A DNA stretch of 64,000 nucleotides, from NCBI RefSeq assembly GCF_003704095.1, contig NW_020846005.1, positions 1-64,000 of the forward strand, in the 5' to 3' direction. The notes beneath the pieces are model-generated. The model was not told where the DNA came from and did not search any database. It saw nothing but the letters and a program-made list of their open reading frames with translations. Both the position numbers and the translations under genes were made by a program. This DNA comes from Pocillopora damicornis. Lineage: Eukaryota. Positions within the stretch are counted from its first letter, which is position 1, and each line of letters starts with the position of its first letter. This document shows, one piece after another, positions 1 through 23,481 of this stretch.

Positions 1-3000
1 CTACATTCAGTGTGAGCAGAGAAAGCCACAGATCGTCATCGCTAATAGTAGCCTCCAGTCTCTCCAGTCTGCCGTCAGAGCACAGCACAGTCAAAATGTC
101 TTCAGAGAGATCAGAGTTCGTGTCACCTTCATTGCTTGTGCCATCGTCCACTGTGGGTAGTAGGAGAGAAAGCAGCAGCTCCCGGTTAGCAACAATAGAG
201 GCCAGTGTGACATCAGAACAAAGCACACTGAGAGCATCTTTAGAAATCTCGTTGGCAGTATCACCCTCGTCAGTTGCGTCCTTGTCGACTTTTGTTGTTA
301 GCAGAGAGACCAAGAGATCGTCATCAGCACATTTAGTGTCCAGGGTGGCATCAAGGCAAAGCACAGTTGGACAGTCTTTTGCAAGTTCAATGCTGCTGTC
401 ACCATCATCTGTTGCAGTATTGTCGATTGATGGTATTAGCAGGGGAAGCAGCAGGCCCTTATCACCACTAATAGTGTCCAGTTTGGCAGCGGGTGAGAGT
501 ACAGTGAAGGCGTCTTCAGAAAGTTCATTGCTGAAAGTACCATCCTCGGTCGTGAAATCGTCGTCTTTTGATGTGAGCAGTTCAATCAATGTATCCTTAT
601 CCTCCATAGTAGTATCCAGTAAGACTTCAGAGCAAAGGACAGTTGAGGTGTCGTCAGAAAGGTCAGTATTGGGATCACCTTTATCGGTAGCATTTTCGTC
701 TACTTTGAGTCTGAGCAGAGAAAGCCAGAGATCGTCATCTTTAATAGTAGCCTCCAGTCTCTCCAGTCTGCCATCAGGGCACAGCACAGTCAAACTGTCT
801 TCAGAGAGATCAGAGTTCGTGTCACCTTCATTGCTTGTGCCATCGTCCACTGTGGGTAGTAGCAGAGAAAGCAGCAGCTCCCTGTTTGCAACAATAGAGT
901 CTAGTGTGACAACAGAACAAAGCACACTGAGAGCATCTTCAGAAAGCTCGTTGTCAGTATCACCATCGTCAGTTGTGTCCTTTTCGACACTTGTTGTTAG
1001 CAGAGAGAGCAAGAGATCGTCATCAGCAGTTTTAGTCTCCAGTGTGGCATCAAAGCAAAGCACAGTTGCACAGTCATTTGGTAGTTCATTGCTGCTGTTA
1101 CCATCATCGGTTGCAGTATTGTCGACTGATGGTATTAGCAGGGAAAGCAGCAGGTCATTATTACCACTAATAGTGTCCAGTTTGGCATCGGATGAGAGTA
1201 CCGTGAAGGTGTCTTCAGAGATCTCATTGCTGGAAGTACCATCCTCACAAATGAAATCGTCGACTTTTGATGTGAGCAGTGCAATCAGTGTATACNNNNN
1301 NNNNNNNNNNNNNNNNNNNNNNNNNNNNNNNNNNNNNNNNNNNNNNNNNNNNNNNNNNNNNNNNNNNNNNNNNNNNNNNNNNNNNNNNNNNNNNNCTGGA
1401 GAGACTGGAGGCTACTATTAAAGATGACGATCTCTGGCTTTCTCTGCTCGCACTGAAAGTAGACGAAAATGCTAGCGATAAAGGTGATCCGAATACTGAC
1501 CTTTCTGACGACACCTCAACTGTCCTTTCCTCTGAAGTCTTACTGGATACTACTATGGANNNNNNNNNNNNNNNNNNNNNNNNNNNNNNNNNNNNNNNNN
1601 NNNNNNNNNNNNNNNNNNNNNNNNNNNNNNNNNNNNNNNNNNNNNNNNNNNNNNNNNNNNNNNNNNNNNNNNNNNNNNNNNNNNNNNNNNNNNNNNNNNN
1701 NNNNNNNNNNNNNNNNNNNNNNNNNCAACCGATGATGGTGACAGCAGCAATGAACTAGCAAAAGACTGTCCAACTGTGCTTTGCTTTGATGCCACACTAA
1801 AGACTAAAACTGCTGATGACGATTTCTTGCTCTCTCTGCTAAGAAAAGAAGTCGATAAGGACACAACTGACGATGGTGATACTGGCAACAAGCTTTCTGA
1901 AGATGCTCTCAGTGTGCTTTGTTCTGCTGTCACACTAGACTCTATTGTTGCAAACAGGGAGCTGCTGCTTTCTCTGCTACTACCCACAGTGGACGATGGC
2001 ACAAACAATGAAGGTGACACGAACTCTGATCTCTCTGAAGACAGTTTGACTGTGCTGTGCTCTGATGGCAGACTGGACAGACTGGAAACTACTATTGAAG
2101 ATGTCGATCTCTGGCTTTCTCTGCTCAAACTCAAAGTAGGCAAAAATGCTACCGATAAAGGTGATCCCAACACTGACCTTTCTGATGACACCTCAACTGT
2201 CCTTTGCTCCGAAGTGTTACTGGATTCCACTATGGAGGATGGAGATACACTGATTGAACTGCTCACATCAAACGTCGACGATTTCATTACCGAGGATGGC
2301 CCTTCCAGCAATGACTTCTCTGAAGACGCCTTCACTGTACTCTCATCCGATGCCAAACTGGACACTATTACTGGTGATAACGATCTGCTGCTTTCCCTGC
2401 TAATATAATCACTCGACAATACTGCAACCGATGATGGTGACAGCAGCATTGAACTTGCAAAAGACTGTCCAACTGTGCTTTGCTTTGATGCCACACTGGA
2501 GACTAAAACTGCTGATGACGATCTCTTGCTCTCTCTGCTAACAACAAAAGTCGACAAGGACGCAACTGACGATAGTGATACTGGCAACAAGCTTTCGAAA
2601 GATGCTCTCAGGGTGCTTTGTTCTGATGTCACACTGGACTCTCTTGTTGCTAACAGGGAGCTGCTGCTTACTGTGCTACTACCCACAGTGAATAATGGCA
2701 CAAGCAGTGAGGGTGACACGAACTCTGATCTTTCTGAAGACAGTTTCACTGTGCTGTGCCCTGATGGCAGACTGGACAGACTGGAAGCTACTATTGAATA
2801 TGACGATCTCTGGCCTTCTCTGCTCACACTCAAACTAGGCGAAAATGCTACCGATGAAGGTGATCCTAACACTGACCTTTCTGATGAAACCTCCACCGTC
2901 CTTTCCTCCGATGTCTTACTGGATACCACTATGGAGGATGGGGATACACTGATTGGACTGCTTACATCAAAAGTCAACGATTTCACTAACGAGGATGGCC

Positions 3001-6000
3001 CCTCCAGCAGTGACCTCACTGAAAATGCCTTCTCTGTACTCTCATCTGATGCAAAACTGGACNNNNNNNNNNNNNNNNNNNNNNNNNNNNNNNNNNNNNN
3101 NNNNNNNNNNNNNNNNNNNNNNNNNNNNNNNNNNNNNNNNNNNNNNNNNNNNNNNNNNNNNNTTCCAGTCTGTCCAGTCTGCCATCAGGGCACAGCACAG
3201 TGAAACTGTCTTCAGAGAGATCAGAGTTCGTGTCACCCTCACTGCTTGTGCCATCGTCCACCATGGGTAGTATCACAGTAAGCAGCAGCTCCCTGTTAGC
3301 AACAAGAGAGTCCAGTGTGACATCAGTAGAAAGCACAGTGAGAGCATCTTTAGAAAGCTCGTTGCCAGTATCCCCATTGTCAGTTGCGTCCTTGTCGACT
3401 TTTTTTGTTAGCAGAGAGAGCAAGAGATCTTCATCAGCAGTTTTAGTCTTCAGTGTGGCATCAAAGCAAAGCACAGTTGGACAGTCTTTTCCAAGTTCAT
3501 TGCTGTTGTCACCATCATCGGCTGCAATATTGTCGACGGATGGTATTAGCAGGGAAAGCAGCAGATCGCTATCACCAGTAATAGTGTCCGGTTTGGCATC
3601 GGATGAGAATACAGTAAAGACGTCTTCAGAGAAGTCATTGCTGGAAGGGCCATCCTCGATAGTGAAATCGTCAACTTTTTATGTGAATAGTGCAATCAGT
3701 GTATCCCCATCCTCCATAGTGATATCCAGTAAGATTTCGGAGGAAAGTACAGTTGATGTGTCATCAGAAAGGTCAGTGTTGGGATCACCTTCATCGGTAG
3801 CATTTTCGCCTACTTTGAGTGTGAGCAGAGAAAGGCAGAGATTGTCATCTTCAATAGTAGCTTCCAGTCTGTCCAGTCTGCCATCAGAGCACAGCACAGT
3901 CAAACTGTCTTCAGAGAGATCAGAATTCGTGTCACCTTCATTGCTCTTGTCACTGTCCACTGTAGTTAATAGAAAAGAAAGCAGCAGCTTCCTGTTAGCA
4001 ACAATAGACAGTAAGACATCAGAACAAAGCACACTCAGAGCATCTTTAGAAAGCTCGTTGCCGGTATCACCATCGTCAGTTACGTCCTTGTCGACTTTTG
4101 TTTTTAGCACAGAGAGGAAGAGATTGTCATCAGCAGTTTTAGTCTCCACTGTGGCATCCAAGCACAGCACAGTTGCACAGTCTTTTGCAAGTTCATTGCT
4201 GCTGTCACCATCATCGGTTGCAGTATTGTCGACTGATGGTATTAGCAGGGAAAGCAGCAGATCGTTATCGCCAGTAATAGAGTCCAGTTTGGCATCGGAT
4301 GAGAGTACAGTGAAGGCGTCTTCAGAGAGGTCATTGCTGGAAGCGCCATCCTCGGTCCTGAAATTGTCGACTTTTGATGTGAGCAGTGCAATCAGTGTAT
4401 CCCCATCTTCTATAGTGGAATTCAGTAAGACTTCAAAGCAAAGGACAGTCGAGGTGTCATCAGAAAGGTCAGTGTTGGGATCACCTTCATCGCTAGCATT
4501 TTCGCCTACTGTGGGTGTGAGCAGACAGAAGCAGAGATCGTCATCTTCACTAGTAGCTTCCAGTCTGTCCAGTCTGCCATCAGGGCACAGCACGGTGAAT
4601 CTGTCTTCAGAGAGATCAGAGTTCGTGTCACCTTCATTTCTTGTGCCATCATCCAGTGTGGTTAGTGCCAGAGAAAGTAGCAGCTCCCAGTTAGCAAGAA
4701 AAAAGTCCAGTGTGACATCAGAACAAAGCACATTGAGAGCATCTTTAGAAAGCTCATTGCCAGGATCACCATCCTCAGTTGCGTCCTTGTCGACTTTTGT
4801 TGTTAACAGAGAGAGCAAGAGATCGTCATCAGCAGTTTTAGTCTCTAGTGTGGCATCAAAGCAAAGCTCAGCTGGACAGTCTTTTGTAAGTTTAATCCTG
4901 CTGTCACCATCATCGGTTGCAGTATTGTCGACTGATGGTATTAGCAGGGAAAGCAGCAGATTGCTATCACCAGTAATAGTGTCTAGTCTGGCATCGGATG
5001 AGAGTACAGTGGAGGCGTCTTCAGAGAGGTCATTGCTGGAAGCACCATCGTCGGTAGTGATATCGTCGACGTTTGATGTGAGCAGTGCAGTCAGTGTATC
5101 CCCAGCCTCCGTAGTGGTATCCAGTAAGACTTCAGAGGAAAGGACAGTTGAGGTGTCATCAGAAAGATCAGTGTTGAGATCACATTCATCGGTAGTATTT
5201 TCGCCTACTTTCAATGTGAGCAGAGAAAGCCAGAGATCGTCATCTTCAACAGTGGCTTCCAGTGTCTTCAGTCTGCCGTCAGTGCACAGCGCAGTCAAAG
5301 TGTCTTCAGAGAGATCAGAGTTCGTGTCACCTTCACTGCTTGTGCCATCGTCCACTGTGGGTAGTAGCAGAGAAAGCAGCAGCTCCCTGTTAGGAACAGT
5401 AGAGTCCAGTGTGACATCAGAAAAAAGCGCACCGAGATCATCTTTACAAAGCTCGTTGCCAGTATCACCATCGTCAGTTGCGTCCTTGTCGACTTTTGTT
5501 GTTAGCAGAGAGAGCAAGAGATCGTCATCAGCAGTTTTAGTCTCTAGTGTGGCATCAAAGCAAAGCTCAGCTGGACAGTCTTTTGTAAGTTTAATCCTGC
5601 TGTCACCATCATCGGTTGCAGTATTGTCGTCCGATGGTATTAGCAAGGAAAGCAGCAGATTATTATCACCAGTAATAGTGTCCAGTTTGGGATCGGATGA
5701 GGGTATAGTGAAGGCGTCTTCAGAGAGGTCATTGCTGGAAACGCCATCCTTGGCAGTGAAATCGTCGACTTTTGATGTGAGCAGTGCGATCAGTGTATTC
5801 CTATCCTCCATAGTGGTATCCAGTAAGACATCGGAGCAAAGGACAGTTGAGGTGTCATCAGAAAGGTCAGTGTTGGGATCTCCTTCATCGCTAAAATTTT
5901 TGCCTACTTTAAGTGTGAGCAGAGAAAGCCAGAGATCGTCATCTTCAATAGTAGCCTCCAATCTGTCCAGTCTTCCATCAGGGTACAGCACAGCTAAATT

Positions 6001-9000
6001 CTCTTCAGAGAGATCAGAGTTCGTGTCACCTTCACTGCTTGCGCCATCGTCGACTGTGGGTAGTAGTAGAGAAAGCAGCAGCTCTTTGTTAGCAACAATC
6101 GAGTCTAGTGTGACATCAGAAAAAAGCACACTGAGATTATCTTTAGAAAGCTCGTTGCCAGTATCACCATCGTCAGTTGCGTCATTGTCGACTTTTGTTG
6201 TTAGCACAGAGAAATCGTCATTGGCAGTTTTAGTCTCCAGTTTGATATCAAAGGAAAGCACAGTTGGACAGTCTTTAGCAAGGTCATTGCTGTTGTCACC
6301 ATCATCGGTTGCAGCATTGTTGACTGATGGTATTAGCAAGGAAAGCAGGAAATCGTTATCACCAGTAATAGTGTCTAGTTTGGCATCGGATGAGAGTACA
6401 GTAAAGGCGTCTTTAGAGGGATCATTGCTGGAAGTGCCATCCTCGGCAGTGAAATTGTCGACTTTTGATGTGAGCAGTGCAATCAGTGTATCCCCATTTT
6501 CCTTAGTGGTATCCAGTAACACTTCGGAGGAAAGGACAGTTGAGGTGTCATCAGAAAGGTCAGTGTTAGGATCACCCTCATCGCTAACATTTTCTCCTAC
6601 TTTGAGTGTGAGCAGAGAAAGCCAGAGATCGTCATCTTCAATAGTAGCTTCCAGTCTGTCCCGTCTGCCATCAGAGCACAGCACAGTCAAACTGTCTTCA
6701 GAGAGATCACAGTTCATGTCATCTTCATTGCTTCTGCCATCGCCCTTTATGGGTAGTAGCAGACAAAGCAGCAGCTCCCTGTTAGCAACAATAGAGTCCC
6801 GTGTGACATCAGAAGAAAGCACACTGAGAGCATTTTTAGAAAGCTCGCTGACAGTATCACCATCGTCAGTTGCGTCCTTATCGACTTTTGTTGTGAGCAG
6901 AGAGAGCAAGAGATCGTCAACAATACCTTTAGTCTCCAGCGGGGCATCGAAGCAAAGCACAGTTGAACAGTCTTTTGCAAGTTCATTGCTGCTGTCACCA
7001 TCATCAATTGCAGTATTGTCAACTGATAGCATTAGCATGGAAAGCAGCAGATCCTTATCACCAGTAATAGTGTCCAGTTTGGCATCGGATGAGAGTACAG
7101 TGAAGGCCTCTTCAGAGAGGTCATTGCTGCATGCGTCATCCTCGGCAGTGAAATCGTCGACTTTTGATGTGAGCAGTGCAATCAGTGTATCCCCATCCTC
7201 CATAGTGGTATCCAGTGAGACCTCGGAGCAAAGGACAGTTGAGGTGTCATCAGAAAGGTCGGTGTTGGGATCACCTTCATTGCTAACATTTTTGCCTACT
7301 TTAAGTGTGAGCAGAGAAAGTCAGAGATCGTTATCTTCAATAGTAGCTTCCAGTCCTTCCAGTCGGCAATCAGGGCACAGAACAGTCAAACTGTCTTCAG
7401 AGAGATCAGAGTTCGTGTCACCTTCACTGCTTGTGCCATCGTCCTCTGTGGTTAGTAGCAGAGAAAGCAGCATCTCTCCGTTAGCAACAATAGATTCCAG
7501 TGTGACATCAGAGGAAAGTACACTGAGATCATCTTTAGAAAGCTCATTGCCGGTATCACCATCGTCAGTTATGTCCTTGTCGACTTTTGTTGTTAGCAGA
7601 GAGAGGACGAGATCGTCATCAGCAGCTTTAGTCTCCAGTGTGGCATCAAAGCAAACAAAAGTTGGACAGTCTTCTGCAAGGTCATTGCTGCTGTCGCCAC
7701 CATCGGTTGCAGTATTGTCGACTGATGGTATTAGCAGGGAAAGCAGCAGATTGTTATCACCGGCAGTAGTGTCCAGTTTGGCATCTGACGAGAGTACAGC
7801 GAAGGCGTCTTCAGAGACGTCATTGCTGGAAGGGCCATCCTCGGTAGTAAAATCGTCGACTTTTGATGTGAGCAGTGCAATCAGTGTATCCCCATCCTCC
7901 ATAGTTGTATCCAGTAAGACATTGGAGCAAAGGACAGTTGAGGTGTCATCCGAAAGGTCAGTGTTAGTATCACCTTTATTGCTAACATTTCCACCTACTT
8001 TGAGTGTGAGCAGAGAAAGACAAAGATGGTCATCTTCAATAGTAGCTTCCAGTCTGTCTAGTCTGAAATCAGAGCACAGCACAGTTGAACTGTCTTTAGA
8101 GAGATCAGAGTTCGTGTCACCTTCATTGCTTGTGCGATCGTCCACTGTGGGTGTTAGTAAAGAAAGCAGGAGCTCCCTGTTAGGAACAATAGAGTCCAGT
8201 GTGACATCAGAACAAAGCACACTGAGAACATCTTTAAAAAGCTCATTGCCAGTACCACCATCGCCAGTTGTGTCATTGTCGACTTTTGTTGTTAGCAGAG
8301 AGAGGAAGAGATCGTCATCAGCAGTTATAGTCTCCAGTGTGGCATCAAAGCAAAGTAGAGTTGGACAGTCTTTTGAAAGTTCATTGCTGCTGTCACCATC
8401 ATCGGTTGCAGTATTGTCGACTGATGGTATTAACATGAAAAGCAGCAGATCGTTATCACCGGTAATAGTGTCAGGTTTCCCATCGGATGAGAGTACAGTG
8501 AAGGCATCTTCAGAGAAGTCATTGCTGAAAGGGTCATCCTTGTTAGTGAAATCGTCGACTTTTGATGTGAGCAGTTCAATCAGTGTATCCTCATCCTCCA
8601 TGGTGGTATCCAGTAAGACATCGGAGCAAAGGACAATTGAGGTGTCATCAGAAAGGTCAGTGTTGGGATCACCTTCATCGCTAGCATTTTTGTCTATTTT
8701 TAGTGTGGGCAGAGAAAGCCAGATATTGTCATCTTCAATAATAGCTTCCAGTCTGTCCAGTCTGCCATCAGGGTACAGCACAGTCAAACTGTCTTCAGAG
8801 AGATCAGAGTTCGTGTCACTTTCATTGATTGTGCCATCGTCCACTCTGGGTAGTAGGAGAGAAAGAAGTAGCTCCCTGTTAGCAACTATAGATGCCAGTG
8901 TGGCATCAGAAGAAAGCACACTGAGAGCATCTTTAGAAAGCTCGTTGCCAGTATCACCATCGTCAGTGGCGTCCTTGTCGACTTTTTTTGTTAGCAGAGA

Positions 9001-12000
9001 GAGCAAGAGATCGTCATCAGCAGTTTTAGTTTCCAGTGTGGGATCAAGGCAAAGCACAGTTGGACAGTCTTTTGCAAGTTCATTGCTGCTGTCACCATCA
9101 TCGGTTGCAGTATTGTCGACTGATGGTATTAGGAAGGAAAGAAGCAGATCGTTATCACCAGTAATAGTGTTTAGTTTGGCATCAGATGAGAGTACAGTGA
9201 AGGCGTCTTCAGAGGGGTCATTGCTGGAAGTGCCATCCTCGGTAGTAAAATCGTCGACTTTTTATGTGAGCAGTGCAATCAGTGTATCCCCATCCTCCAT
9301 AGTGGTATCCAGTGAGACTTCGGAGGAAGCGACACTTGAAGTTTTATCCGAAAGATCAATGTTGGGATCACCTTCATCGGTAGCATTTTCGCCTAATTTG
9401 AGTGTGAGCAGAGAAAGCCAGAGATTGTCATCTTCAATAGTAGCCTCCAGTCTTGCCAGTCTCTCACGTCTGTCCAGTCTGCCATCAGAGCAAAGCACAG
9501 TCAAGCTGTCCTCAGAGAGATCAGAGTTGGTGTCACCTTCATTGCTTTTGCCATCGTCCACTGTGGGTAATAGGAGAGTAAGAACCAGCTCCCTGTTAGC
9601 AACATTAGAGTCCCATGTGATATCCGAAGAGAGCACATTGAGAGCATCTTTAGAATATTCGTTGCCAGTATCACCATCGCCAGTTGCGTCATTGTCGACT
9701 TTTGTTGTTAGCGGAGAGAGCAAGAGATCGTCATCAGCAGTTTTAGTTTCCAGTGTGGCATCAAGGCAAAGCACAGTTGGACAGTCTTTTGCAAGTTCAT
9801 TGCTGCTGTCACCNNNNNNNNNNNNNNNNNNNNNNNNNNNNNNNNNNNNNNNNNNNNNNNNNNNNNNNNNNNNNNNNNNNNNNNNNNNNNNNNNNNNNNN
9901 NNNNNNNNNNNNNGATGACCCTTTCAGCAATGACTTCTCTGAAGATGTCTTCACTGTACTCTCATCCGATGGGAAACTTGACACTATTACCGGTGATAAC
10001 GATCTGCTGCTTTTCATGCTAATACCATCAGTCGACAATACTGCAACCGATGATGGTGACAGCAGCAATGAACTTTCAAAAGACTGTCCAACTGTACTTT
10101 GCTTTGCTGCCACACTGGAGACTAAGACTGCTAATGACGATCTCTTGCTCTCTCTGCTAACAACAAAAGTCGACAATGACGCAACTGGCGAAGGTGATAC
10201 TGGCAACGAATTTTCTAAAGATGCTCTCAATGTGCTTTCTTCGGATATCACAACGGACTCTATTGTTGCTAACAGGGAGCTGGTACTTACTCTCCTATGA
10301 CCCACAGTGGACGATGGCAAAAGCAATGAAGGTGACACCAACTCTGATCTCTCTGAGGACAGCTTGACTGTGCTTTGCTCTGATGGCAGACTGGACAGAC
10401 GTGAGAGACTGGACAGACTGGAGGCTACTATTGAAGATGACGATCTCTGGCTTTCTCTGCTCACACTCAAATTAGGCGAAAATGCTACCGACGAAGGTGA
10501 TCCCAACATTGATCTTTCGGATAAAACTTCAACTGTCGTTAGCTCCGAAGTCTCACTGGATACTACTATGGAGGATGGGGATACACTGATTGCACTGCTC
10601 ACATAAGAAGTCGACGATTTCACTACCAAGGATGGCGCTTCCAGCAATGACCCCTCTGAAGACGCCTTCACTGTACTCTCATCCGATGCCAAACTGGACA
10701 CTATTACTGGTGATAACACTCTGCTGCTTTCCCTGCTAATACTATCACTCGACAATACTGCAACCGATGATGGTGACAGCAGCAATGAACTTGCAAAAGA
10801 CTGTCCAACTGTGCTTTGCTTTGATGTCACACTGGAGACTAAAACTGTTGATGACAATGTCTTGCTCTCTCTTCTAACACCAAAGGTCGACGAGGACGAA
10901 AGTGACGATGGTGATACTGGCAATAAGCTTTCTAAAGATGATCTCAGTGTGCTTTCTTCTGATGTCACACTAGAATCTATTGTTGCTAACAGAGAGCTCC
11001 TGATTTCTCTGCTACTACCCAGAGTGGACGATGGCACAAGCAATGAAGGTGACACGAACTCTGATCTCTCTGTAGACAGTTTGACTGTGCTGTGCCCTGA
11101 TGGCTGACTAGAGAAACTGGAAGCTACTATTGAAGATGACGATTTCTGGTTTTCTCTGCTCACCCTTAGAGTAGGCAAAAATGTTAGCAATGAAGGTGAT
11201 CCCAACACTGACCGTTCTGATGACACCACAATTGTCCTTTGCTCCGAAGTTTCACTGGACACCACTATGGAGAACAGGGATACACTGATTGCACTGCTCA
11301 CATCAAAAGTCGACGATTTCACTGCCGAGGATGACGCTTCCAGCAATGACCTCTTTGAAGAGGCCTTCACTGTACTCTCATCTGATGCCAAACTGGAGAC
11401 TATTACTGGTAATAACGATCTACTGCTTTCCCTGCTAAAACCATCAGTCGACAATACTGCAACTGATGATGGTGACAGCAGCAATGAACTTCCAAAAGGC
11501 TGTCCAACTGTGCTTTGCTTTGATGCCACGCTGAAGACTAAAGCTACTGATGACGACCTCTTGCTCTCTCTGCTTACAACAAAAGTCAACAAGGACGCAA
11601 CTGACGATGGTGATACTGGCAGCGAGCTTTCTAAAAATGCTCTCAGTGTACTTTCTTCTGATGNNNNNNNNNNNNNNNNNNNNNNNNNNNNNNNNNNNNN
11701 NNNNNNNNNNNNNNNNNNNNNNNNNNNNNNNNNNNNNNNNNNNNNNNNNNNNNNNNNNNNNNNCAAACTGTCTTCAGAGAGATCAAAGTTCGTGTCACCT
11801 TCATTGCTTGTGCCATCGTCCAGTGTGGGTAGTAGCAGAGAAAGCAGCAGCTCCCTGTTAGCAACAATAGAGTCCAGTGTGACATCAGAACAAAGCACAC
11901 TGAGAGCATCTTTAGAAAGCTCGTTGCCAGTATCACCTTCGTCAGTTGCGTCCTTGTGGACTTTAGTTGTTAGCAGAGAGAGCAACAGATCGTCATCAGC

Positions 12001-14432
12001 AGTTTTAGTCTCCAGTATGGCATCAAAGCAAAGCACAGTTGGAGAATCTTTTGCAAGTTCATTGCTGCTGTCACCATCATCGGTTGCAGTATTGTCGACT
12101 TATGGTATTAGCAGGGAAAGCAGCAGATCGTTATCACCAGTAATAGTGTCCAGTTTGGCATCGGATGAGAGTACAGTGAAGGCGTCTTCAGAGAGGTCAT
12201 TGCTGGAAGCGCCATCATCGGTGGTGAAATCGTCGACTTTTGATGTGAGCAGTACAATCAATGTATCCCCATCCTCCTTAGTGGCATCCAGTAAGACTTC
12301 GGAGCTAAGGACAGTGGAGGTGTCATCAGAAAGGTCAGTGTTCGGATCACCTTCATCGCTAGCATTTTCGCCTACTTTGAGTGCGAGCAGAGAAAGCCAG
12401 AGATCATCATCTTCAATAGTAGCTTCCAGTCTGTCCAGTCTGCCATCAGAGTACAGCACAGTCAAACATTCTTCAGAGAGATCAGAGTTCGTGTCACCTT
12501 CACTGCGTGTGCCATCATCCACTGTGGGTAGTAGCAGAGAAAGCAGCAGCTCCCTGTTAGCAAGAATAGAGTCCAGTGTGACATCAGAACAAAGCGCAGT
12601 GACAGCATCTTTAGAAAGCTCGTTTCCAGTATCACCATGGTCAGTTGCGTCCTTGTCGGCTTTTGTTGTTAGCAGAGAGAGCAAGAGATCGTCATCAGCA
12701 GTTTTAGTCTCCAGTGTGGCATCAAGGCAAAGCACAGTTGGAGAGTCTTTTGCAAGTTTATTGCTGCTGTCACCATCATTGGTTGCAGTATTACCAACTG
12801 ATGGTATTAGCAGGGAAAGCAGCAGATCGTTATCACCAGTAAAAGTGTCCAGTTTGGCATCGGATGAGGGTACAGTGAAGGCGTCTTCAGAGAGGTCATT
12901 GTATGATACGCCATCGTCGGTATTGAAATCGTCGACTTTTGATGTGAGCAGTGTAATCAGTGTATCCCCATCCTCCATAGCGGTATCCAGTAAGACTTCG
13001 GAGCACAGGACAGTTGAGGTGTCATCAGAAAGGTCAGTGTTGGGATCACCTTCATCGGTAACATTTTCGCCTACTTTGAGTGTGAGCAGAAAAAGGCAGA
13101 GATCGTCATTTTTAATACTAGCTTCCAGTCTGTCCAGTTTGCCATCACAGCACAGCACAGTCAAACTGTCTTCAGAGAAATCAGAGTTCGTGTCCTCTTC
13201 ACTGCTTGTGCCATCGTCCACTGTGCGTAGTAGCAGAGAAAGCAGCAGCTTCCTGTTAGCAACAATAGAGTCCAGTGTGACATCAGAACAAAGCACACTG
13301 AGAGCATCTTTAGAAGGCTCGTTGCCAGTATCACCATCGTCAGTTGCGTCCTTGTGGACTTTAGTTGTTAGCAGAGAGAGCAAGAGATCGTCATCAGCAG
13401 TTTTAGTCTCCAGTATGGCATCAAAGCAAAGCACAGTTGGAGAGTTTTTTGCAAGTTCATTGCTGCTGTCACCATCATCGGTTGCAGTATTGTCGACAGG
13501 TGGTATTAGCAAGGAAAGCAGGAGATCGTTATCACCAGTAATAGAGTCCAGTTTGGCATTGGATGAGAGTAGAGTGAAGGTGTCTTCAGAGAGGTCATTG
13601 CTGGAGGCGCCATCGTCGGTAGTGAAATCGTCGACTTTTGATGTGAACAGTGCAGCCACTGTANNNNNNNNNNNNNNNNNNNNNNNNNNNNNNNNNNNNN
13701 NNNNNNNNNNNNNNNNNNNNNNNNNNNNNNNNNNNNNNNNNNNNNNNNNNNNNNNNNNNNNNNTGCTAATACCATCAGTCGACAATACTGCAACCGATGA
13801 TGGTGACAGCAGCAATGGACTTGCAAAAGACTGTCCAACTCTGCTTTGCTTTGATGCCACACTGGAGACTAAAACTGCTGATGACGATCTCTTGCTCTCT
13901 CTGCTAACAACAAAAGTCGACAAGGACGCAACTGACGATGGTGATACTGGCAGCGAGCTTTCTAAAGATGCTCTCAGTGTGCTTTGTTCTGATATCACAC
14001 CGGACTCTATTGTTACTAACAGAGAGCTGCTGTTTTCTCTGCTACTACCCACAGTGGACGATGGCACAAGCAATGAAGGTGACACGAACTCTGATCTCTC
14101 TGAAGACAGTTTGACTGTATTGTGCTCTGATGGCAGACTGGATAGACTGGAAGCTACTATTGAAGATGACGATCTCTGCCTTTTTCTGTTCACACTCAAA
14201 GTAGGCGAAAATGCTAGCGATGAAGGTGATACCAACACTGACCTTTCTGATGACACCTCAACTGTCCTTTGCTTTGAAGTCTTATTGGATACCACTATGG
14301 AGGATGGGGATACACTGATTGCACTGCTCACATCGAAAGTCGACGATTTCACGACCGAGGATGGCGCTTCCATCAATGACCTCTCTGAAGACGCCTTCAC
14401 TGTACTCTCAGCCGATGCGAAACTGGACACTG
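1..14432. repeat. Coding tandem array, 699-bp (233-aa) unit, ~19-20 copies; unit = 5 monomers (46+46+46+46+49 aa)
   Basis: Identical anchors recur 699 bp apart (3200/3899; 1776/2475). About 13.8 kb of non-N sequence, interrupted by N gaps at 1296-1395, 1560-1725, 3063-3162, 9814-9913, 11664-11763 and 13664-13763. Confidence 0.95.
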
Positions 14433-17400
14433 TTAGTGGTGTTACAGACATTGTACTTTTCTTGACTAGAAAGGTTTGTTTACTCATAGTTTCCTGCGTT
14501 GATTTCTAAAGTGAAAAGTAATTGTAAGATTAATGTATTTTACTCTAAGGAGTGTTTGGATAAACTTAAATATGGTAGAATTCTTGACAAAGATATATAA
14601 ATTTATCAGTAAAAGTTATCAATAGTTTTATTTACAAAGAATTTAGATGGAAGTGATGCTGTAAAATTAAAAATTTTCGATAAAGTCAGGCTACTTATGT
14701 TATTTTATGGAATGAATAACGAAAAATAGGATCTGCATTTCATAGAACAGCCAAAATATACAATGACTACAACATAAGAGAACTATAAAAAAGTGCAACT
14801 ATGGCTTTCATGGAGCTACCAAATAAGCATCTCCTTCTGACTTGAACAATAAGAATATTTGTTTACAGGTTTCTCTGGTTAGCCAAATTCTTATGCAGAA
14901 TGATTTTGAAATATATAATGTCCCTGAATTTTACTACCTCTAGTTGAGTAAAGTCCTAACGAGTGGGCTAGGACTAAGAGTAATCTATTCTTCGTTGTTT
15001 TTGTTTTTTTTTTTTTTGCTGATGTGTCCATTCTTTACCAGGGGAGAGTTTAAGCTCACAAGTGCAACAATCAATTAAAAGTTTCTACATCCCCCTCTTG
15101 GGTGGCCGAAGCAACCCCCTTGGACAAATGAACTGTTGAAGACCAGTTTTATAAATTCCCACCTCAGAGGTAAAAAGATTATCCTCAAATGAACCATCCA
15201 ATATTTTTTTAAAAGTCAAAATCAGCAACCAAACCTTTCTACTCATTGGCCAAGCTTTAAAACCTAGCCCTTGAGGACCTTCTCTTCTGAGCCATTTTCT
15301 TAAGAAAGTGAACATTTCCACATTGAAAGATATAACACTTGTATTCCATGGGAAAGACTTGACACATCCAATTCAAATTTCCCACACCAGCTAGGCAGGG
15401 TTCTAATTCCCCACCCTCAGGGCAAGCACAACAGTCAAATACCTGAAAATTGCCTGCGGTGGGGGGGGGGGGATGTTGAACTTTGAGTGATTGGAGCATT
15501 ATGATACCAATTCATAAGGTTGAGTGTACTGTTTCTCTACTAGCGATAAAAATACTGTTTGTCTCTTTATTAAGTTTTGATTCCAAAAAAAAATCAATAG
15601 AACTAGTTCCACTATTACTTACCAGCTTCAAGGTTCTCAAATTGGTTTTTTTTATTTTCAAACAACAAATCTGGGATGAATCATAGCTTCTAAATACATT
15701 TACTTCTTAACCTGCTAAATTAGTCAAAAACAAAATGTACTCATTTTTCTCAAAATCGAGGACACTATGATAACTCTTGAACCTCTGAAAATAACAGCCT
15801 TGTTTTCTAATTGATGTGTCAATTTCTGAACCCTGTTTCATGATCTCCATTGCATATCACTGAATTGTGATATGCATATCTTTCTAAATCCAAAAATAAA
15901 AATCTATGTATTCAGTTCAGAGCCACCTCAGTATTTTGGTGATAAAAGGTTTTTCTTAACTGCATAGAGTTTTCTTTGATGCAGCAGATAGATGACTGCA
16001 ATCCATTGTGAAAGAATGGGGATCACCAAACTTGTTTTGGAATTAAGCTTAAAATAAAGGGTGTTTATTAGAGGCAGTAGTGTTATTATAGCAAAGCTTA
16101 CAAGTATTAAAAATCAAGAAACCATTTTGAGGAATAATTGGCCATTTTTGACACTATCTTTAAGGGAACATGCCAAAAATTGTGGTAGTATCATCCATTC
16201 ATCTTGGAAATAATGTTTGAAAATAAAAAACAATTAAGGGCCACCTTAATTAAATTCAAATCAGCTGATGGAAAGGTCTGATTACCTCTCCAGGGAAATT
16301 AAATCTTAATTTCATGTAGATGACTACAGAACTAACCTGAGAAGGAGTGGGACTCATTGATTCTTCAATAGAGGAAATAAATTGATTTGAGCTCACTAAA
16401 GCAAATGAAATAAAGTTTCCTCCAGAAGACAATAGGGATGCACTTTGATGTACAGATGAGAGCACAGAAAACACTGTGCTCCCATCCCTTCCCAGAAAGT
16501 GTGATGATTTCTTAGACACCTTTTCTGAAGAAACACTTTCCTCCCTCTGCACATTGCCAGGGCTAGAACTGAATTTCACATAAGAAGAGCTGCGCAACTC
16601 CTCTTTGCTTGAAACACTAAATTCAGTTGAACTCTTTGCTGCTGATGCCATTAATGATGACCTCTCAGAGGCCAAACCATAGCTACTTTCATCTCCTGTT
16701 GAACCAAAACTGAAAGTCCCAGATGACATCATTCCTATCTCCATGCTTGAAACAGAGGCAGATGAAGACTTTGCAGATGATACTAAATACACACTAACAT
16801 CCACTGCCACAGTGGAGCGTAGAATTTCAGATACCACACTGCCTCCCTCTCTACTTGAAATGCCAGCTGATGAAAAAATTACACCAGATAATAAAACCAC
16901 AGATGGTGTCAAAGCCAAAACTGCAGCTGTACTGTGCTTTATTGGAACACTGGAACTTTGCTCTAAACCAGAAGCACCTATTGAGTCCAAAGATTTTGAA
17001 GTGAATATTGCAGTTGTTCTTCCAGAGGCCTTATTTACAGAGGGCCATGAAAGATAACTTGAGTTTTCAGCTGAATTTGCCAGCTGATCTGCTGAGTAAG
17101 ATGAATTGGTGAAATAACTACTCATTTGCAAAACCCCTTGATTGGTCACTTCTGTGGGTGACAAAAGTAACTCCGTGTGGGCAACAGGTACAGTTAACGT
17201 ATTTTCAAGTACCCCTGTACTTTCCAAGTATTTCTTGTTTGAAGAAATTTCTGTAAGCTGCATATCATGTTCATAAGATGAACTCGTTGATTTTTGTAAT
17301 AATTTGATTACATCTTGTGTCCGGTTTGACTGTGACTCGGGGGAGCTGTTCACCGTGATTTGTGATAACGACAAAAACGGGGACGACTGATCAATATCAG

Positions 17401-17557
17401 ACCTGACGCTTGCTTGAGTTGGAGAACTGTTCACTTGCCATAATGTACTATTCAATGGGATTGTGGCACCTCGTAAAATGACATCATCTGTTGAAACGCT
17501 TTCTACAGTGATCATTAAACCAAGGATAAGCACACCCTCCAACAACAACCACAACAT
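1..17557 (-). CDS. Giant secreted Ser-rich (mucin-like) repeat protein; 3' end beyond the window or fragmented by gaps
   Basis: Exon 17592..16286 encodes a hydrophobic signal-like segment (MLWLLLEGVLILGLMITVES, ATG 17557) and a Ser/Thr-rich non-repetitive region. Its phase-0 donor (GAG|gtaatc, 16286) matches the phase-0 acceptor (tttag|AAA, 14505), which reads in frame into the Ser-rich repeat frame (KSTQETMSKQ...STVKASSERS). The Ser frame shows no stop within any contig in the ORF track. Contigs 1-1295, 3163-9813 and 11764-13663 carry it on + (probably mis-oriented). Confidence 0.75.
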
Positions 17558-18953
17558 GCATGATAAAGCTGGATCACCGACTGCCAGTGGTCCTGTAAAT
17601 GGTAGTGAATTTTTCAGAAAGACATATTACTTTATAAACAATAAAATGACGCACAACAGGCAAATTCTTATTACTGCAAACAATTTGAAATACACAGAGT
17701 GAAAAAAACACAACACGTGTCACCTTGTACATTCAATTCCCAACACTCATTGATTTGTTTTTTACCATCAGTTCCAAAAAAGAGTCGAAGTGAATTGGTT
17801 TTAGGCACCCACGTACATTACTATTGTTTGAGAGAGAGGAGCCCTGATGCGATTTCCGGACGGTTTCCGAGCAACTTGTTACAATACTCAAAGACATGAC
17901 TCATTCTGAGAGACGATTATCGAACGAAACGGGAGTTTTTGCCAAGAGTGCACATAATCCACGGATTCAACCGCAAATGAACCGGCGTCTTAAATAACCG
18001 CAGCTCATACTGCCAATGACCCCAGTTGGAAAATTCTGGAATGGCATGGACTTTTCTCATGGAGTTCTACAACAGCTATTCCTTATAACATAAATGTAAC
18101 TGATAAAAAATGAAGACACACATCTGAACAGGATAGAAAAATTCCAACGAAAATTTAATATCAATGAAGAACTTAAGGGGAGTTATTTTTGAAACGCTGG
18201 CGTCAACCGGAAGAATAATATAATTAACTCAGTGGCTCGTTGACCCTAAAATATCGACCAAATTGTGTTGACCAAAAAGGTGTAGTGAGCAACAGGAATG
18301 AACACTTTTAACTTCTCTTAAGTGTTTTTAGTTGATGGTTGCACGAGTCTCTGTTACTTGTATTCGCCCTTTACTCATTCTCAATGTGTTTGTGACCAAT
18401 GCCGGTAAAATCTACAACTTTTTCATTCTCCCGCAATCTCAGTCTATTTGAGCGCATGAGAGAAGCTTACAATTTTTTGCATATTTTTCAGCGTAGACGT
18501 GAGGTTCCATTTTGGGTCAAATATTTTCTTGAGAAATACGATTTACAGTAAAAGAATATGTGAACGCTGAGGAGAATGTTTCGCAAATACACTGTACGTC
18601 TTCAAAAAAGACAAAAGCGAACAATTTTCCTCACCAATACTAATCCAAGACGCCTTTTGGAGAGGTCATATCCTCTGAAAAATTAAAACCTTCATGCCCC
18701 TATTGAGAGCATTTTCGCCTGTGATGTAGATTGATATGTTAGCGGACAAAAAGGAGATTGCCTTTTTCGATGGAATTAAATAACTGAGGTAAGAAACTAC
18801 ATTAGGAAACCTTGATGCAGACGTCTTGGAAAATATGCTTCCCACTTTTGCTAGAAGCGAAAAACAACTTATGTGGAATGGACAAATCACATATATGCTG
18901 ATGGTAGGCAATATCCCTAGCTACAAACCACGCAAGCGAGGGTTGTCTGCGAG

Positions 18954-19017
18954 CTAATCTCGTACCCGAATCCTACCGTCTAACTGCTAGGCCGTGGAAG
19001 GTCTGGGTACGAGACTA
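18954..19017. repeat. Short hairpin / MITE-like remnant
   Basis: Inverted ends taatctcgtaccc ... gggtacgagacta around a ~35-bp spacer. Confidence 0.45.
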
Positions 19018-21401
19018 CCTCTGGGGTAACAAGCCCTTGGTCGCCAGTAAGGAAGTTTGAGGCCAGCCAGGGAGAAGTCTGCTATTGGTCTCAAACCCTG
19101 TGCATACTTCTTCCCGGTTCTCTTTGCTGAAGGCCTAAAACTATCTTACGGGCCGAGAGACGTAGGCGACGGTGATAAAAACTAAATGAAGATACATGAG
19201 AACCTTGACAGAAAAAAAATTTCCCTCATAAGGCCTCAGCGATCGTTATAATAATTTGCGATCACTAAGGAGAACAAAAACAACGGTGATCCGGAATATA
19301 TGAAGCGATGTTGTAATGTTTTTCGCGATGCTCTTGATTGCTAGGATCCCCAATGGACGTGATCTGCTGTCTACATGATCGTTACGGTCATAACCGGTTA
19401 CTTTATTTGATTTAATCTCAATGGTTCCAGACGCCGTTATTTGAAGATCGTTATGATTGATGGGATTGATACAGTCGCTGGTCAAGTTTATGGCGATCAT
19501 AGCGAATGTAAGGATTACATTGAAACCACGCAAGGCGCGCGATATTACGATGCGTAAATCCGCTCATCGATTTGACGCACAAAAGCATAGCATGTGTAAT
19601 ACTTTATGACCAATATGTGACTACAGCTTTTATTTGAAAAGGAGAACAAAAATAAAAACAATGGCCTTTTAAGCGTTCTTTGTCCTTTTCTGTGTTCGGG
19701 GTCTTTCTAGAATACTTTTATACAATCGTCATATACTATTTTTGGCGTTTTCTGTGTGTTAGATGTAATTAAGTTTTGCATTTGCACAAGGCGTAGATCC
19801 TAAAGTAACTTTGTTTAAACAGGGTTTGTTTGTTTTTGTTGCTGCTTTAGATATATGAAAAAAAACTTTGGAGGTAAAACGAATGAAAAAGTCCTTGTGC
19901 TGGGAGAGAAATTTAATATGCATCTACTTGTTAGAAATATAAAGCTTATCATTGCAAAATGCTAGTAATAAAGTGAAAGAGATTGAGCCAAATTTTTCAT
20001 TTCGTATTCAAATCCTTATTAAGCAAATATTTCAAAGTTTGGCTGGAAAACAAGCACTCCTGTCGAAATTACCTTCAAAAGAAAGCGTTGGGGCCGAGGA
20101 AAAATGGTGAACTAATGAATTTAAGTTAACTAATGAATGAGCTTTGTCAGATTCGAACAATTATTTCAGTCTATTCGCTTATATTCAAATAAACTCTGTC
20201 CCCCAAGGTGATAAGGTTTTCAAGAGCACTGTTATGTAAACTGATTCATCCACCCACGTTGTTGTTAAACAATTCAATTTATCACAACCTACAACTTTGC
20301 GCAACACTTAAATAAAGATCCGTTTCGGGTCGGAAAAGAAGTTATTCCCGTGTCTGTTAACTTATTTCATCTCGTAATAAAGCTATCGACAATGTTCCAG
20401 TCTTAAGCCAAACAATTTGTAACTTTTTGTCTAAATTCCAAGGTAATTTTACCAAAATACAAGTCTGGTTTGCTATGGAAATATATTTAGTCCACTGAGA
20501 ATGAACAACATAACATGTAAGATGTACTGTGAATTTAAAAAGTGTTGTTTCGGTGTAAGAAGTAAAGCATAAAATCATTAATCGATGGTGAAATTGGTGT
20601 CCTAGTTGCGCAGTTAATAAAATACGTGGATTTCGATAACTAAGCCGCGCTGTCAGCTCAGAATTTTTTGCTACCAAATCTGGAATACTGCCCGTAAATG
20701 TTTGTCATTTATGATACTGATACCTTTAGGGCTAAACGAACACGTGAAACCAAATTTTGCTTTAACGACGAAATTTTTTCAGTCAACAGTTCATGGGTAC
20801 TACGAGAAAAGACATTTCCCGCGCTCCAAACAGGGGTTGAACTTCGGACAGTCCGTCTAGTATCCGACCTCTCTAATGCCACGCTTTGAATCCTTTATCA
20901 AATCGATTTTTTCCCGATAAACGATTCTGTTTCCTTTTCATACTTAAATCCAGCGGGGAGCTTTTAAAAGACATAACTCATCGATAAGATTAACTAAATC
21001 CGAACTTGTTGCGGAACAACGCAACAAGTTGCTTGAATTCATAACGATAAGAGTGGATACTAACGTTATGTACATGTTTAGTGTATCACTATATTAACGA
21101 CGCAATCTGTGATAAATATAAATATCTTAATAAAAACATTAAGGAAATACTTACCATAAAAAAAAATGTTATTTATCAATCTGCTAACTCAGCTCAGAAA
21201 TTTGCTGGAAACTGTAGGCGGAAAAAGTGCTCGAAATCGAAAATGCCAGGAAATGAAGCCTGGCTAAAACTGCATCTTACACTAAAACTATTTATCGATT
21301 AGAAATCGTCTTACGCCCGACGCCACAAGCAGCTCAAAAAACAGCAATTTGCGGCAAATTTTGAGTCCAATTGGGAAACCATAAGCAAATGACTTACTTA
21401 C

Positions 21402-21438
21402 CTCGTGCAGCCAGATTACATGGCTGGTTATCTTTCAT
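21402..21438 (-). CDS. Tentative first coding exon of the Ser-rich repeat gene (MKDNQPCNLAAR-G)
   Basis: ATG at 21438 gives 12 codons + 1 nt, followed by a strong donor G|gtaagt (phase 1). This matches the phase-1 acceptor atttacag|GA at 17592, which reads GPLAVGDPALSC in frame into MLWLL. No transcript evidence. Confidence 0.4.
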
Positions 21439-23289
21439 ATTTCCACTTGCAACGTAAATACGGCGCTATTCGACCTTCTTAATCGTTCCATAAGTCGAGC
21501 TTTTCACTTGATTTCCATTCAATTACTTGCTCACGCTCAACTCTTCTGTACTGTACTTTATTGCAGATCAAAGTAGCCGTGGGTTGCACAACTCTTACGT
21601 TTTGTGAGTCACAGTGCAAAAAGCGATTTCGTGCATAATCATTTGACGTGTTGTCGATCGTTGTTTCACGAAGCTCTCTGGAATGCTTCCCTTGTCACCC
21701 AAAGCTTTGTTTAAAAAATACAGAATTGTGAAGCATTATACACAATTTTTCTCTTTACAAAAGCGGATCACAACGAGTTTATGGCCTTATGCAAATGTTT
21801 GGTAACACTGGCGCGACTGGCTTGTTGCCTTGAACTCATTTCCCTAAAGAAAAAGATGTTAAGAAAGACAATTCACCGATCGATTCGTTTACCTTGGGAT
21901 AACTCGTCGCTTTCGCACCCTTGAAAAATTGCTAATTACCTGCGATGGGTGACCAGTGCGCAGGCGGATATATGCTTACTAACGATCGGTTTTAATATAA
22001 AATGACCCGCGTCATTTTTTTTTCGAAAATGAATGTCGGGTTTTTTCTTCACAGAGGGGAACGCGATAAACTACAGTAAGAATTGCGAGTTTCGGCACAA
22101 AAAGCGACAAACTCATTAAAAAGTCAATACAGTGTGGTTAAAAGACCTGCCGAGATATCAAGTATTTGTATGTCCTGTAATGCAGTCTAGAGTTTAAACC
22201 TGCTCATGATTTATTGACTGCATGCTGTCGCCCATTAAAAATAAGAATAAATAAATAACCGAAAAAATTTTTGTCTCGGATTAAAGTTGATACTAGAGAA
22301 GTCGTTCCATAGATATTACTGAAAACGATGATAAGTGTCTTTGGCAAGTTAAAGACAAAAAAAAAAGACCACCAAGTAAATATTTGTTCCTCAAAACAAA
22401 CATGTAAGCCATAACGAATTACGCGAAATAACTCTAAAGACCATAATATATCATCAAATCCCTGCCTCCAGGGGATAACCAAACTAAAATATCTGTTCTG
22501 TAAAAACCATAAGAACCGATAAATCTCAATCGCACGTGCAAAAAATCGTACAACCCAGCAGCATCGCTATATCTGAACAACGTCCCCAATACTGCTCACT
22601 GAAAATTCCGGATTATAAGAAATACGAACACAATAAATGGGTGATAATAAATTGATCCTCCGCACAAGCCAGACGAGAGAGTTATGTGAGTTTGCTTTTA
22701 ATAAGCCTCCTAATTGCAATTGTACAACAAATGCGCAAGGGATAGATTTTGCGACGTTGCATCAATCGATGATGATAGACTTGCTAATTTCATGAAGGCA
22801 ACTTATTAAAATTACGGTTACGAATACAGCAAACAAATTAGGCAAATAAAATGACAAAAAATTATGCACGCACGTAGTTTAGCGCAAAGGAGTAAAACGT
22901 ATTGAAAACCGTTCAGTAACATGCTTACACAGTAGGATTAGATGATCGAATGCCAGGTCACACTGTTTGAACAAGAAATATGTCACATTTAATACCATTT
23001 GACTAATGAACTTTAATTCGCTTGTGTCAATTGATGACAGCACGTAACCCTGCTGCCATCTGAATCACGGAATACAGCTGACTAAAACAATAAAAGTTTC
23101 TTGCAATTTCTCTTGAACACAGTATTTTCTAGTTTTTACATATTTCAGTTTCAACTCTTCTTTGGCAAGTTGTTCATATCTCTTCCATTTGCGTGAAATT
23201 TGTGAGCCGAGGCCATAATTAAATCAATCCCAGTCCCGAAACGACAGTTGTTTGTGATTGGATAATGATAGACCGAAAGCTCTTCGGAA

Positions 23290-23480: not shown

Positions 23481-23481
23481 C

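Follow-up and report, generated by a model that had tools for sequence, protein, structure and literature searches.

What kind of sequence occupies the left end of this Pocillopora damicornis contig, and is the long serine-rich array that begins there a translated exon or a satellite that happens to be open? The original prediction, made within the 64,000-nucleotide stretch analysed here (hereafter the window), held that a protein-coding higher-order repeat at 3200-9813 contributes to an extracellular polymer of more than 4000 residues, heavily O-glycosylated or phosphorylated.

A higher-order repeat in an open reading frame

The contig at 3163-9813 carries, on its plus strand, a single stop-free Ser-rich frame of 2216 codons without Cys, in which nine complete units are followed by a partial tenth (Table 1). 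From 3194 to 9813 the array consists of a 699-nt unit made of five diverged 138-nt monomers, and the majority unit bears out the proposed decomposition into 46+46+46+46+49 = 233 residues. Both expected periods rise above the control: across 3163-9813 the DNA autocorrelation at lags 699 and 138 reaches 0.70 and 0.52, as compared with 0.281 +/- 0.006 (maximum 0.306) in 200 codon shuffles, and that of the protein at lags 233 and 46 reaches 0.58 and 0.36 versus 0.159 when shuffled. Periods shorter than 138 nt are not prominent in the array. The positions first singled out as conserved (T2, S6, S10, P15, S16, T23, S27, S40 and S41) are identical in all five monomer consensuses, and the SRES motif said to be mostly present at S27 occurs in four of the five.

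Pairwise identity between monomer consensuses is 62-74% at the nucleotide level and 44-63% at the amino acid level, whereas the 13 complete units share 86-93% and 71-85%, respectively, and monomers of the same class a mean of 88.6% of nucleotides over 859 pairs. Moreover, each of the five classes forms one clade in a tree of 65 monomers (support 99-100 / 95-100). Monomers within a unit are, in other words, more diverged than their counterparts between units, and the observation of a protein-coding higher-order repeat is confirmed, with two corrections that concern its extent and its strand.

Diverged monomers nested in multimers that resemble one another more closely also define the alpha-satellite higher-order repeats; these are, however, non-coding and centromeric, whereas the coral array is spliced and open to translation, with selection acting against stops. 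The NBPF/Olduvai triplets differ in having genomic monomers of ~1.6 kb in 3-mers, exon-intron units and no secreted Ser-rich chain, and Chironomus sp-I, whose Balbiani ring repeats are said to be hierarchically arranged, is an insect silk with Cys-bearing constant regions, in contrast to the coral array, from which Cys is purged. Likenesses are described all the same: the Olduvai repeats follow a higher-order pattern, so named, in protein-coding genes (PMC12882164), sp-I comprises giant secreted tandem-repeat polypeptides phosphorylated on Ser (PMC2113727), and the ensemble repeats of the spidroins MaSp1, MaSp2 and MaSp3 place diverged sub-units within a repeated higher-order unit of a giant secreted protein, with or without introns (PMC9779670). 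Spidroins depart from the coral chain in their Gly/Ala chemistry and folded terminal domains, and their ensembles are more homogenised, with a mean amino acid identity of 93.5% reported for MaSp2.2 against the 71-85% found here (PMC9779670). The architecture inside coding sequence is real, but the surprise initially attached to it was overstated, since spidroins and NBPF are described as having it (PMC9779670, PMC12882164).

Table 1. Coordinates of the repeat units, array contigs, exons and introns in the window
Feature	Position	Strand	Size	Remark
Whole unit 1	3194-3892	+	233 aa	
Whole unit 2	3893-4588	+	232 aa	
Whole unit 3	4589-5287	+	233 aa	
Whole unit 4	5288-5986	+	233 aa	
Whole unit 5	5987-6679	+	231 aa	
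Whole unit 6	6680-7378	+	233 aa	
Whole unit 7	7379-8077	+	233 aa	
Whole unit 8	8078-8776	+	233 aa	
Whole unit 9	8777-9493	+	239 aa	
Array contig	1..1295	+	431 codons	Runs off window
Array contig	1396..1559	-	54 codons	
Array contig	1726..3062	-	445 codons	
Array contig, first reported	3163..9813	+	2216 codons	Orientation opposite to gene
Array contig	9914..11663	-	582 codons	
Array contig	11764..13663	+	633 codons	Open in the Ser frame; orientation opposite to gene
Giant repeat exon, start	13764..14505	-		First unit as monomers D-E-A-B-C, after ~22 unique codons
Intron 2, GT..AG, phase 0	14506..16336	-	1831 nt	RNA joint and intron ends
Second exon	16337..17592	-	~418 codons	RNA joints
Intron 1, GT..AG	17593..21401	-	3809 nt	RNA joint and intron ends
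First coding exon, 5' limit provisional	21402..21546	-	12 codons + 1 base	GTAAGT donor

Gene structure and extent of the array

Splicing of the array to a signal exon, on which the original prediction depended, is borne out by two RNA joints that are in frame and whose GT-AG ends place the gene on the minus strand. The joint 21401/17591 is carried by RNA contigs of X15 and X16 (two of the four runs, from two studies) and the joint 16337/14505, which leads into the array, by a single 1131-nt X15 contig (one of the four runs); these contigs have no strand information, and some cover introns. In the joined model an upstream in-frame stop at 21468 precedes the start ATG at 21438, after which the frame stays open through the signal-type exon into the array.

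The second exon holds a hydrophobic signal-type segment at model residues 24-42, judged from hydrophobicity. Behind it comes unique low-complexity sequence rich in Ser, in which residues 60-189 include six N-x-S/T sequons, and residues 234-252 form another hydrophobic stretch, weaker than the first. Its 418 residues include one Cys, located before the signal-type segment, and a monomer profile detected no significant degenerate monomers in it (best 9.5 bits versus 8.0 +/- 3.5 shuffled). Barring introns within the N-gaps, one large tandem-repeat exon lies behind an N-terminal signal-type segment. In all four runs the summed RNA contig depth, which is a measure neither of copy number nor of expression rank, is 56-1330 over the repeat unit versus 0-7 over the unique exon. 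One of five RNA linker variants is present in the window and four are absent, so that the RNA samples must hold units or alleles beyond it; the same DNA was also found in 14 runs of four studies at 85-89% of words (11 guessed to be DNA, three of unknown kind).

The limits originally drawn at 3200-9813 proved too narrow, for the array spans positions 1-14505 in seven gap-separated contigs that together hold ~19.6 units and 4608 codons, with no stop and no Cys in any of the seven. The proposed length of more than 4000 residues accordingly stands, as does, largely, the proviso that the contigs not be redundant, since a single one of the 859 same-class monomer pairs reaches at least 98% identity. 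The units of 9914-11663 are mosaics related to those of 3163-9813, and an 18-nt in-frame insertion is common to both. The gene runs off the window, with its C-terminus outside.

Neutral drift under a purge of stops and cysteine

Among the units, divergence is nearly even over the three codon positions (0.112, 0.122 and 0.124), and dN/dS is 1.06 across all contigs and 1.08 across 12 units, while the distinct substitutions include no stops, against 23.7 expected, and no Cys, against 11.0 expected. Simulation on 12 of the 13 whole units gave expectations of 22.6 +/- 4.8 stops and 9.0 +/- 3.0 Cys, and none of 300 runs was as low as the observed counts; all four indels (three distinct events) are multiples of 3. 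The units drift neutrally while stops and Cys are purged, which is probably the mark of a translated, unstructured and probably extracellular chain, a location that the Cys purge fits. Under a coarse model Ser residues changed less than expected (observed/expected 0.84) and residues other than Ser and Glu more (1.18). The simulation and the tests on units omit one whole unit from 9914-11663 as a possible duplicate, and the whole-array codon and substitution counts omit the first 66 non-repeat bases of 13764-14505. Two single-base changes toward Cys are seen in this array without any Cys codon, so the codons concerned must carry a second change.

As first noted, the chain is Ser/Val/Leu-rich, low in Thr and Pro and Cys-free (S 33.7, V 11.8, L 11.1, E 6.6, T 5.6, R 5.4, P 4.6 and C 0% in 3163-9813), with 27% V, L, I, F and M, a share that appears high for a glycan bottle-brush. 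Ser and Thr together make up 39.3% of 3163-9813 and 42.5% of the majority unit. In the 2117 windows of 100 residues, Ser+Thr is at least 40% in 47% and Pro at least 5 in 56% (above 5 in 18%); both limits are reached jointly in 28%, and in 9% if taken strictly. PTS domains are defined by at least 40% Ser+Thr, with Pro often above 5% (PMC4948705). The statement that the repeat is unlike classic PTS mucins was hence too strong, given that it sits at the edge of that definition, but it holds for the Ser:Thr ratio of ~6:1 and for the aliphatic and aromatic residues. A mucin layout of signal, low-complexity region and one large repeat exon has been described (PMC9080433, PMC13345508), and in mucins with large VNTR or PTS exons (human MUC3A, MUC12 and MUC17 type; Actinia tenebrosa mucin1-like) the signal segment, the low-complexity region, the very large tandem-repeat exon and the degenerate repeats resemble the coral gene, whose Ser+Thr content also lies close to their ~40% (PMC9080433, PMC13345508, PMC4948705). 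The coral array differs from these in the features just named, in Pro below 5% and in its two-tier 5x46 repeat; no sequence similarity to them was found, and the C-terminal SEA/EGF (or NIDO-AMOP-VWD) domains, membrane segment and tail of a transmembrane mucin would lie outside the window. A gel-forming mucin was considered and rejected, because the second exon has neither VWD nor the Cys-rich VWD-C8-TIL N-terminus of that class, with its one Cys and no Pfam family.

Taken together, we consider it rather probable (about 0.58) that a transcribed and spliced animal gene lies here, in which a giant exon of 699-nt higher-order repeats encodes an extracellular, unstructured, mucin-like Ser-rich chain of ~5000 residues or more, predicted to be O-glycosylated and serving as a spacer or mucus-coat polymer. 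A 138-nt coding monomer would have been duplicated into five copies, which diverged; unequal crossing-over would then have multiplied the five-monomer block about twentyfold or more, as the mosaic units support. The signal-type segment, to go by its hydrophobicity, would direct the chain to the secretory pathway, where hydroxyl bulk and length would matter and, with dN/dS ~1, exact sequence would not. The removal of stops and frameshifts would reflect a need to translate the whole array, probably as far as a C-terminal part beyond the window, and that of free Cys the risk of stray disulfides in an oxidising compartment. AlphaFold2 predicts no secondary structure (mean pLDDT 37), a weak indication because it draws on a shallow alignment of 11 near-copies.

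Would the same data suit another reading of the DNA itself? A non-coding satellite, or a coding antisense Asp-rich acidic frame reminiscent of coral skeletal acidic proteins, might be suspected from a dN/dS near 1, from the equal divergence across codon positions among units and from antisense frames of up to 1213 residues that have the third codon position in common with the Ser frame. The antisense frame, however, has eight stops in 4601 codons against none in the Ser frame, and over 12 units its four stops (7.9 +/- 2.6 expected) amount to no clear purge; its openness follows from the rarity of sense codons starting with TA or CA (0 and 6 of 233). With third codon positions differing more between monomer classes (0.45 versus 0.28), with splice ends that indicate the Ser strand and with the transcribed strand lacking an open Asp-rich frame, this reading is already largely refuted and retains next to no probability. 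Orientation raises a related doubt, since three of the seven contigs read plus and four minus as assembled, the reported one being inverted relative to its signal exon, and no gap-spanning read was found in the data examined. The plus contig could then come from an inverted second paralogue, or from an inverted stretch that the transcript does not include, which we regard as very improbable: all five switches fall at N-gaps and none within a contig, the contigs are built of one common unit at similar divergence and in each of them the Ser frame alone is free of stops, and beyond 14505 the window holds neither a second signal exon nor a further repeat copy. The contig at 3163-9813, which would be under coding selection even if truly inverted, was most likely flipped in scaffolding and is probably part of the spliced transcript, although it is oriented opposite to the gene.

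As for the protein, the array might serve a membrane receptor or an adhesion protein (SEA-, GAIN- or polycystin-type) as a passive stalk, which would set only the distance from the membrane while the working domains lie beyond the window. Strict selection for read-through with neutral residues would agree with this, as would the long N-region ahead of the hydrophobic segment, which fits large membrane proteins; such repeat behaviour overlaps, however, with that of the mucin-like chain, and the C-terminal sequence lies outside the window, so we rate the stalk as unlikely. Cnidarian proteins combining signal, low complexity, SEA and a transmembrane segment are described (PMC9080433). Somewhat more doubtful is a phosphoserine polymer, i.e., a cement, fibre or mineral-binding matrix modified by a Fam20C-type secretory kinase. 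The consensus of Fam20C is S-x-E, and the proposed fit of the repeat to it turned out weak: the excess over the whole contig (83 versus 49.7 +/- 5.4) is unreliable, as units are copies of one another, and the nine sites per unit compare with 5.9 +/- 1.9 expected (P=0.088). Residues in S-x-E motifs did change less (21 versus 29.4 expected, ratio 0.71; other Ser/Glu 0.90) and Glu was gained 19 times versus 8.6 expected (one of 20 tests), but Glu overall is not conserved (ratio 1.01) and the net charge is near zero. Giant Ser-phosphorylated tandem-repeat secretory proteins, such as those of Chironomus, are on record (PMC2113727); a literature search on coral, Fam20C and skeleton found nothing related. 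A kindred idea, to which we give slightly less weight still, draws on the fixed Ser/aliphatic pattern, the 27% hydrophobic residues and the S-x-E sites to make the 46-residue monomer the unit of a self-assembling coral fibre or cement, phosphorylated, Cys-free, beta-forming and silk-like, in mucus sheets or at the attachment of tissue to skeleton, instead of a glycan brush. Finally, residues 234-252 (Kyte-Doolittle 19-residue mean 2.09) could span the membrane, leaving a 190-aa N-glycosylated ectodomain, to which six of the eight sequons in residues 1-678 would belong, and behind it a giant Ser-rich tail in the cytoplasm. The summed insertion energy (+1.66 versus -1.02 for the first segment), the Pro, Ser and Thr within the stretch, the lack of a basic cluster after it and a Cys purge that would have no reason in the cytosol make such a tail highly improbable.

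Searches of the collections and significance

Database searches returned no relative. Word-index searches of one unit against proteins of 407-2000 aa, of the second exon against 733-2090 aa and of array residues 10-500 against 1218-3878 aa gave no homologue, each among 8000 candidates crowded by low complexity, and an 11-unit HMMER profile had no match at E<=0.001 among 1.84 billion representatives, a search whose sensitivity composition filters may lower. The ESM Atlas yielded no usable match for two units or the second exon, and in metagenome contigs none of 69 peptide-pattern matches was confirmed and a 22-nt motif had no exact match. DUF6798, assigned to the array by Pfam (E 2.8e-7), was discarded, because its score adds up across the repeats and no single stretch passes alone. 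The literature consulted, which included few subscription papers, contained no description of this protein. That protein searches did not find it in the collections is probably due to short-read assembly, which breaks and flips such arrays.

The first reading is thus partly supported: the coding repeat, its splicing, its length and, largely, the non-redundancy of its contigs stand, while the kinase, the contrast with PTS mucins and the novelty of the design have lost ground. The gene is unusual in composition; its higher-order architecture as such is already known. Descriptions of the protein backbones in coral mucus are said to be few, and the study of coral MUC genes has been called for (PMC11189453); this gene, which is expressed and would encode at least 5000 aa, is a candidate for such a backbone. 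The array is also a natural experiment of ~870 substitutions in ~20 copies, nearly all tolerated except stops, frameshifts and Cys, and a purge of stops and Cys at dN/dS near 1 offers a transferable test to tell coding repeats from satellites. For annotators it further holds a trap, in that its antisense frame can pass for an acidic protein of the skeleton.

Repeat architecture and reading frame

The original prediction held that 3200-9813 carries a protein-coding unit of 699 nt (233 aa) built from five diverged monomers of 138 nt (46 aa), and that self-autocorrelation would bring out both periods; both are found well above codon-shuffled controls, the DNA autocorrelation reaching 0.70 at 699 nt and 0.52 at 138 nt against 0.281 +/- 0.006, and the protein autocorrelation 0.58 at 233 aa and 0.36 at 46 aa against 0.159 after shuffling. 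A + frame without a stop runs through 2216 codons of contig 3163-9813, nine complete units (each 231-239 aa) lie end to end from 3194 to 9493, and DNA identity is 62-74% between the five monomer consensuses vs 86-93% between whole units. The array is a true higher-order repeat: every monomer class forms a single, well-supported clade in a tree of 65 monomers, and the invariant positions listed in that prediction recur when the monomer consensuses are compared.

Divergence among units is equal by codon position (0.112, 0.122 and 0.124), and dN/dS, computed by mutation class with the majority unit as reference, is 1.06-1.08. Among distinct substitutions, neither stops (23.7 expected) nor Cys codons (11.0 expected) are observed, simulation with 12/13 whole units yields expectations of 22.6 +/- 4.8 stops and 9.0 +/- 3.0 Cys, and all four indels preserve the frame. 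A dN/dS close to 1, the missing stops and cysteines and the in-frame indels therefore establish that the serine-rich frame is translated, its residues being nearly free and read-through being required. Serine is retained slightly more than other residues (0.84 vs 1.18); between monomer classes third-position change is 0.45 vs 0.28, and this older divergence suggests either stronger past constraint or saturation. An antisense frame sharing its third codon position with the serine-rich frame is likewise nearly open across 1-14505, with ORFs of up to 1213 aa that read as an acidic Asp/Thr/Leu protein, but it holds 8 stops in 4601 codons with no clear purge and runs opposite to the splice signals; that it is the coding frame, or that the array is non-coding, is scarcely credible, and it is a trap for gene callers.

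Gene model and extent of the array

Strandless RNA contigs, some containing intron sequence, from four public runs in three studies (two runs labelled coral metagenome) were aligned over 13764-23500. They reveal a splice joint from 21401 to 17591 in two runs from two studies and another from 16337 to 14505 in a single contig of one run, both introns having GT..AG ends on the minus strand. The joined model starts with an ATG at 21438, preceded by an in-frame stop, and its frame continues into the array, with a hydrophobic segment at residues 24-42 followed by ~390 unique Ser-rich residues. Repeat contigs occur in all four RNA runs at 85-99% identity, with head-to-tail joints summing to 699, and 85-89% of sampled words are present in 14 runs from four studies (11 guessed to be DNA, three of unknown kind). 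The source is a marine animal that has spliceosomal introns, and the run labels and word matches make a coral likely. The gene is real and expressed; its coding repeat is cleanly two-tiered, and its Ser/aliphatic composition is unusual.

The array (1-14505) consists of seven contigs with N-gaps between them, and no repeat copies were found past 14505 in the window. Over all of them the serine-rich frame spans 4608 codons (~19.6 units) with 0 stops and 0 Cys. The RNA alignment covered 13764-23500, and contig 3163-9813 is probably part of the same transcript; provided every contig belongs to the gene, the product would comprise at least 431 + 4608, ~5040, aa, and its C-terminus lies left of the window. 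Three contigs run in the + and four in the - direction, all switches falling at gaps, and the simplest reading is that the scaffolder placed repeat contigs of uncertain orientation; a true inversion or a second gene seems very improbable. The contigs are mostly non-redundant: same-class monomer pairs (n=859) average 88.6% identity and only one reaches 98%, whereas between an RNA contig and the second coding exon (16337-17592, minus strand) 15/1006 bases differ. At its end, 3163-9813 has about three monomers in common with contig 9914-11663 at 94-97%, plus an 18-nt insertion, so that roughly one unit may be an allelic copy or a recent duplicate. Contig 9914-11663 is also a mosaic, carrying in another order derived changes of several 3163-9813 units alongside the common insertion, and in contig 11764-13663 an echo of two units (1398 nt) appears at 94%; both patterns are suggestive of unequal crossing-over, of conversion, or of a single diverged allele.

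Nature of the product

We favor, at a probability of roughly 0.58, an O-glycosylated, extended, mucin-like extracellular chain that spaces, hydrates or coats. Residues 24-42 would direct entry to the secretory pathway, many of the ~90-100 hydroxyl residues per unit would be O-glycosylated, and the extended chain would act as spacer, hydrator or coat. The array would work like a mucin VNTR exon, has no confident fold (pLDDT 37, from a shallow alignment) and a net charge near zero, and no membrane-like segment was found within it. A PTS domain is defined by an S+T content >= 40% and a Pro content that commonly exceeds 5% (excerpt of PMC4948705), and the array, at 39-42.5% and 4.6%, is a borderline case. 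Human mucin VNTRs have ~25-52% S/T and are in some cases degenerate (PMC13345508); in coral mucus the glycoproteins are O-linked (excerpt of PMC11189453). Unlike gel-forming mucins, the product has no Cys-rich N-terminus and, judged by sequence, is for that reason not one of them.

The purge of Cys points, by the known chemistry of the secretory pathway, to an oxidising compartment, and a cytoplasmic tail is accordingly as improbable as an inversion. A receptor stalk with C-terminal domains beyond the window is unlikely, although a signal, low-complexity, SEA and membrane layout is described for cnidarian proteins (excerpt of PMC9080433). A phosphoserine cement or matrix is slightly less likely again: S-x-E (Fam20C-type) sites have changed somewhat less than expected (21 vs 29.4), but a unit holds 9 against 5.9 +/- 1.9 expected (P=0.088), and the strong whole-contig excess is uninformative because it counts one unit nine times. 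A self-assembling phosphorylated fibre we consider more doubtful still. Giant repeat proteins phosphorylated on Ser are described in Chironomus (excerpt of PMC2113727). Spidroins and NBPF provide coding-gene higher-order repeats (excerpts of PMC9779670 and PMC12882164), and both the architecture and the probable role of the mucin-like chain are of already known kinds. The protein itself was not found in the protein collections searched: word-index protein searches, a full HMMER scan, Atlas and metagenome scans returned no homologue, a negative weakened because the sequence is low-complexity; no description was found in the literature searched, and the excerpts of PMC6031612, PMC4192438 and PMC3748352 hold no match.

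Neighbouring features

Features accompanying the repeat gene in the window
Feature	Position	Strand	Details
ZIP (SLC39) zinc transporter gene, His-rich exons	~48300-59000	+	Pfam PF02535 at 58313-58756 (E 6.9e-17); weak match at 56040-56648
Unnamed gene, close to ZIP gene	38860-41573	-	Exons: very His-rich, 40956-41573; 516-aa acidic Ser/Glu/Asp, 38860-40410
Two-copy 127-nt tandem repeat	60448-60699		

No Pfam family was found in the unnamed gene, which possibly encodes a secreted metal-binding protein. RNA contigs at 22877-23500 in all four runs, one of 1448 nt extending beyond 23500, suggest another transcript ~1.5 kb upstream of the repeat gene's first coding exon. Two short intronic stretches (15060-15420 and 18982-19017) are matched by many unrelated, loose-ended RNA contigs and probably belong to dispersed repeats or to small mobile elements.
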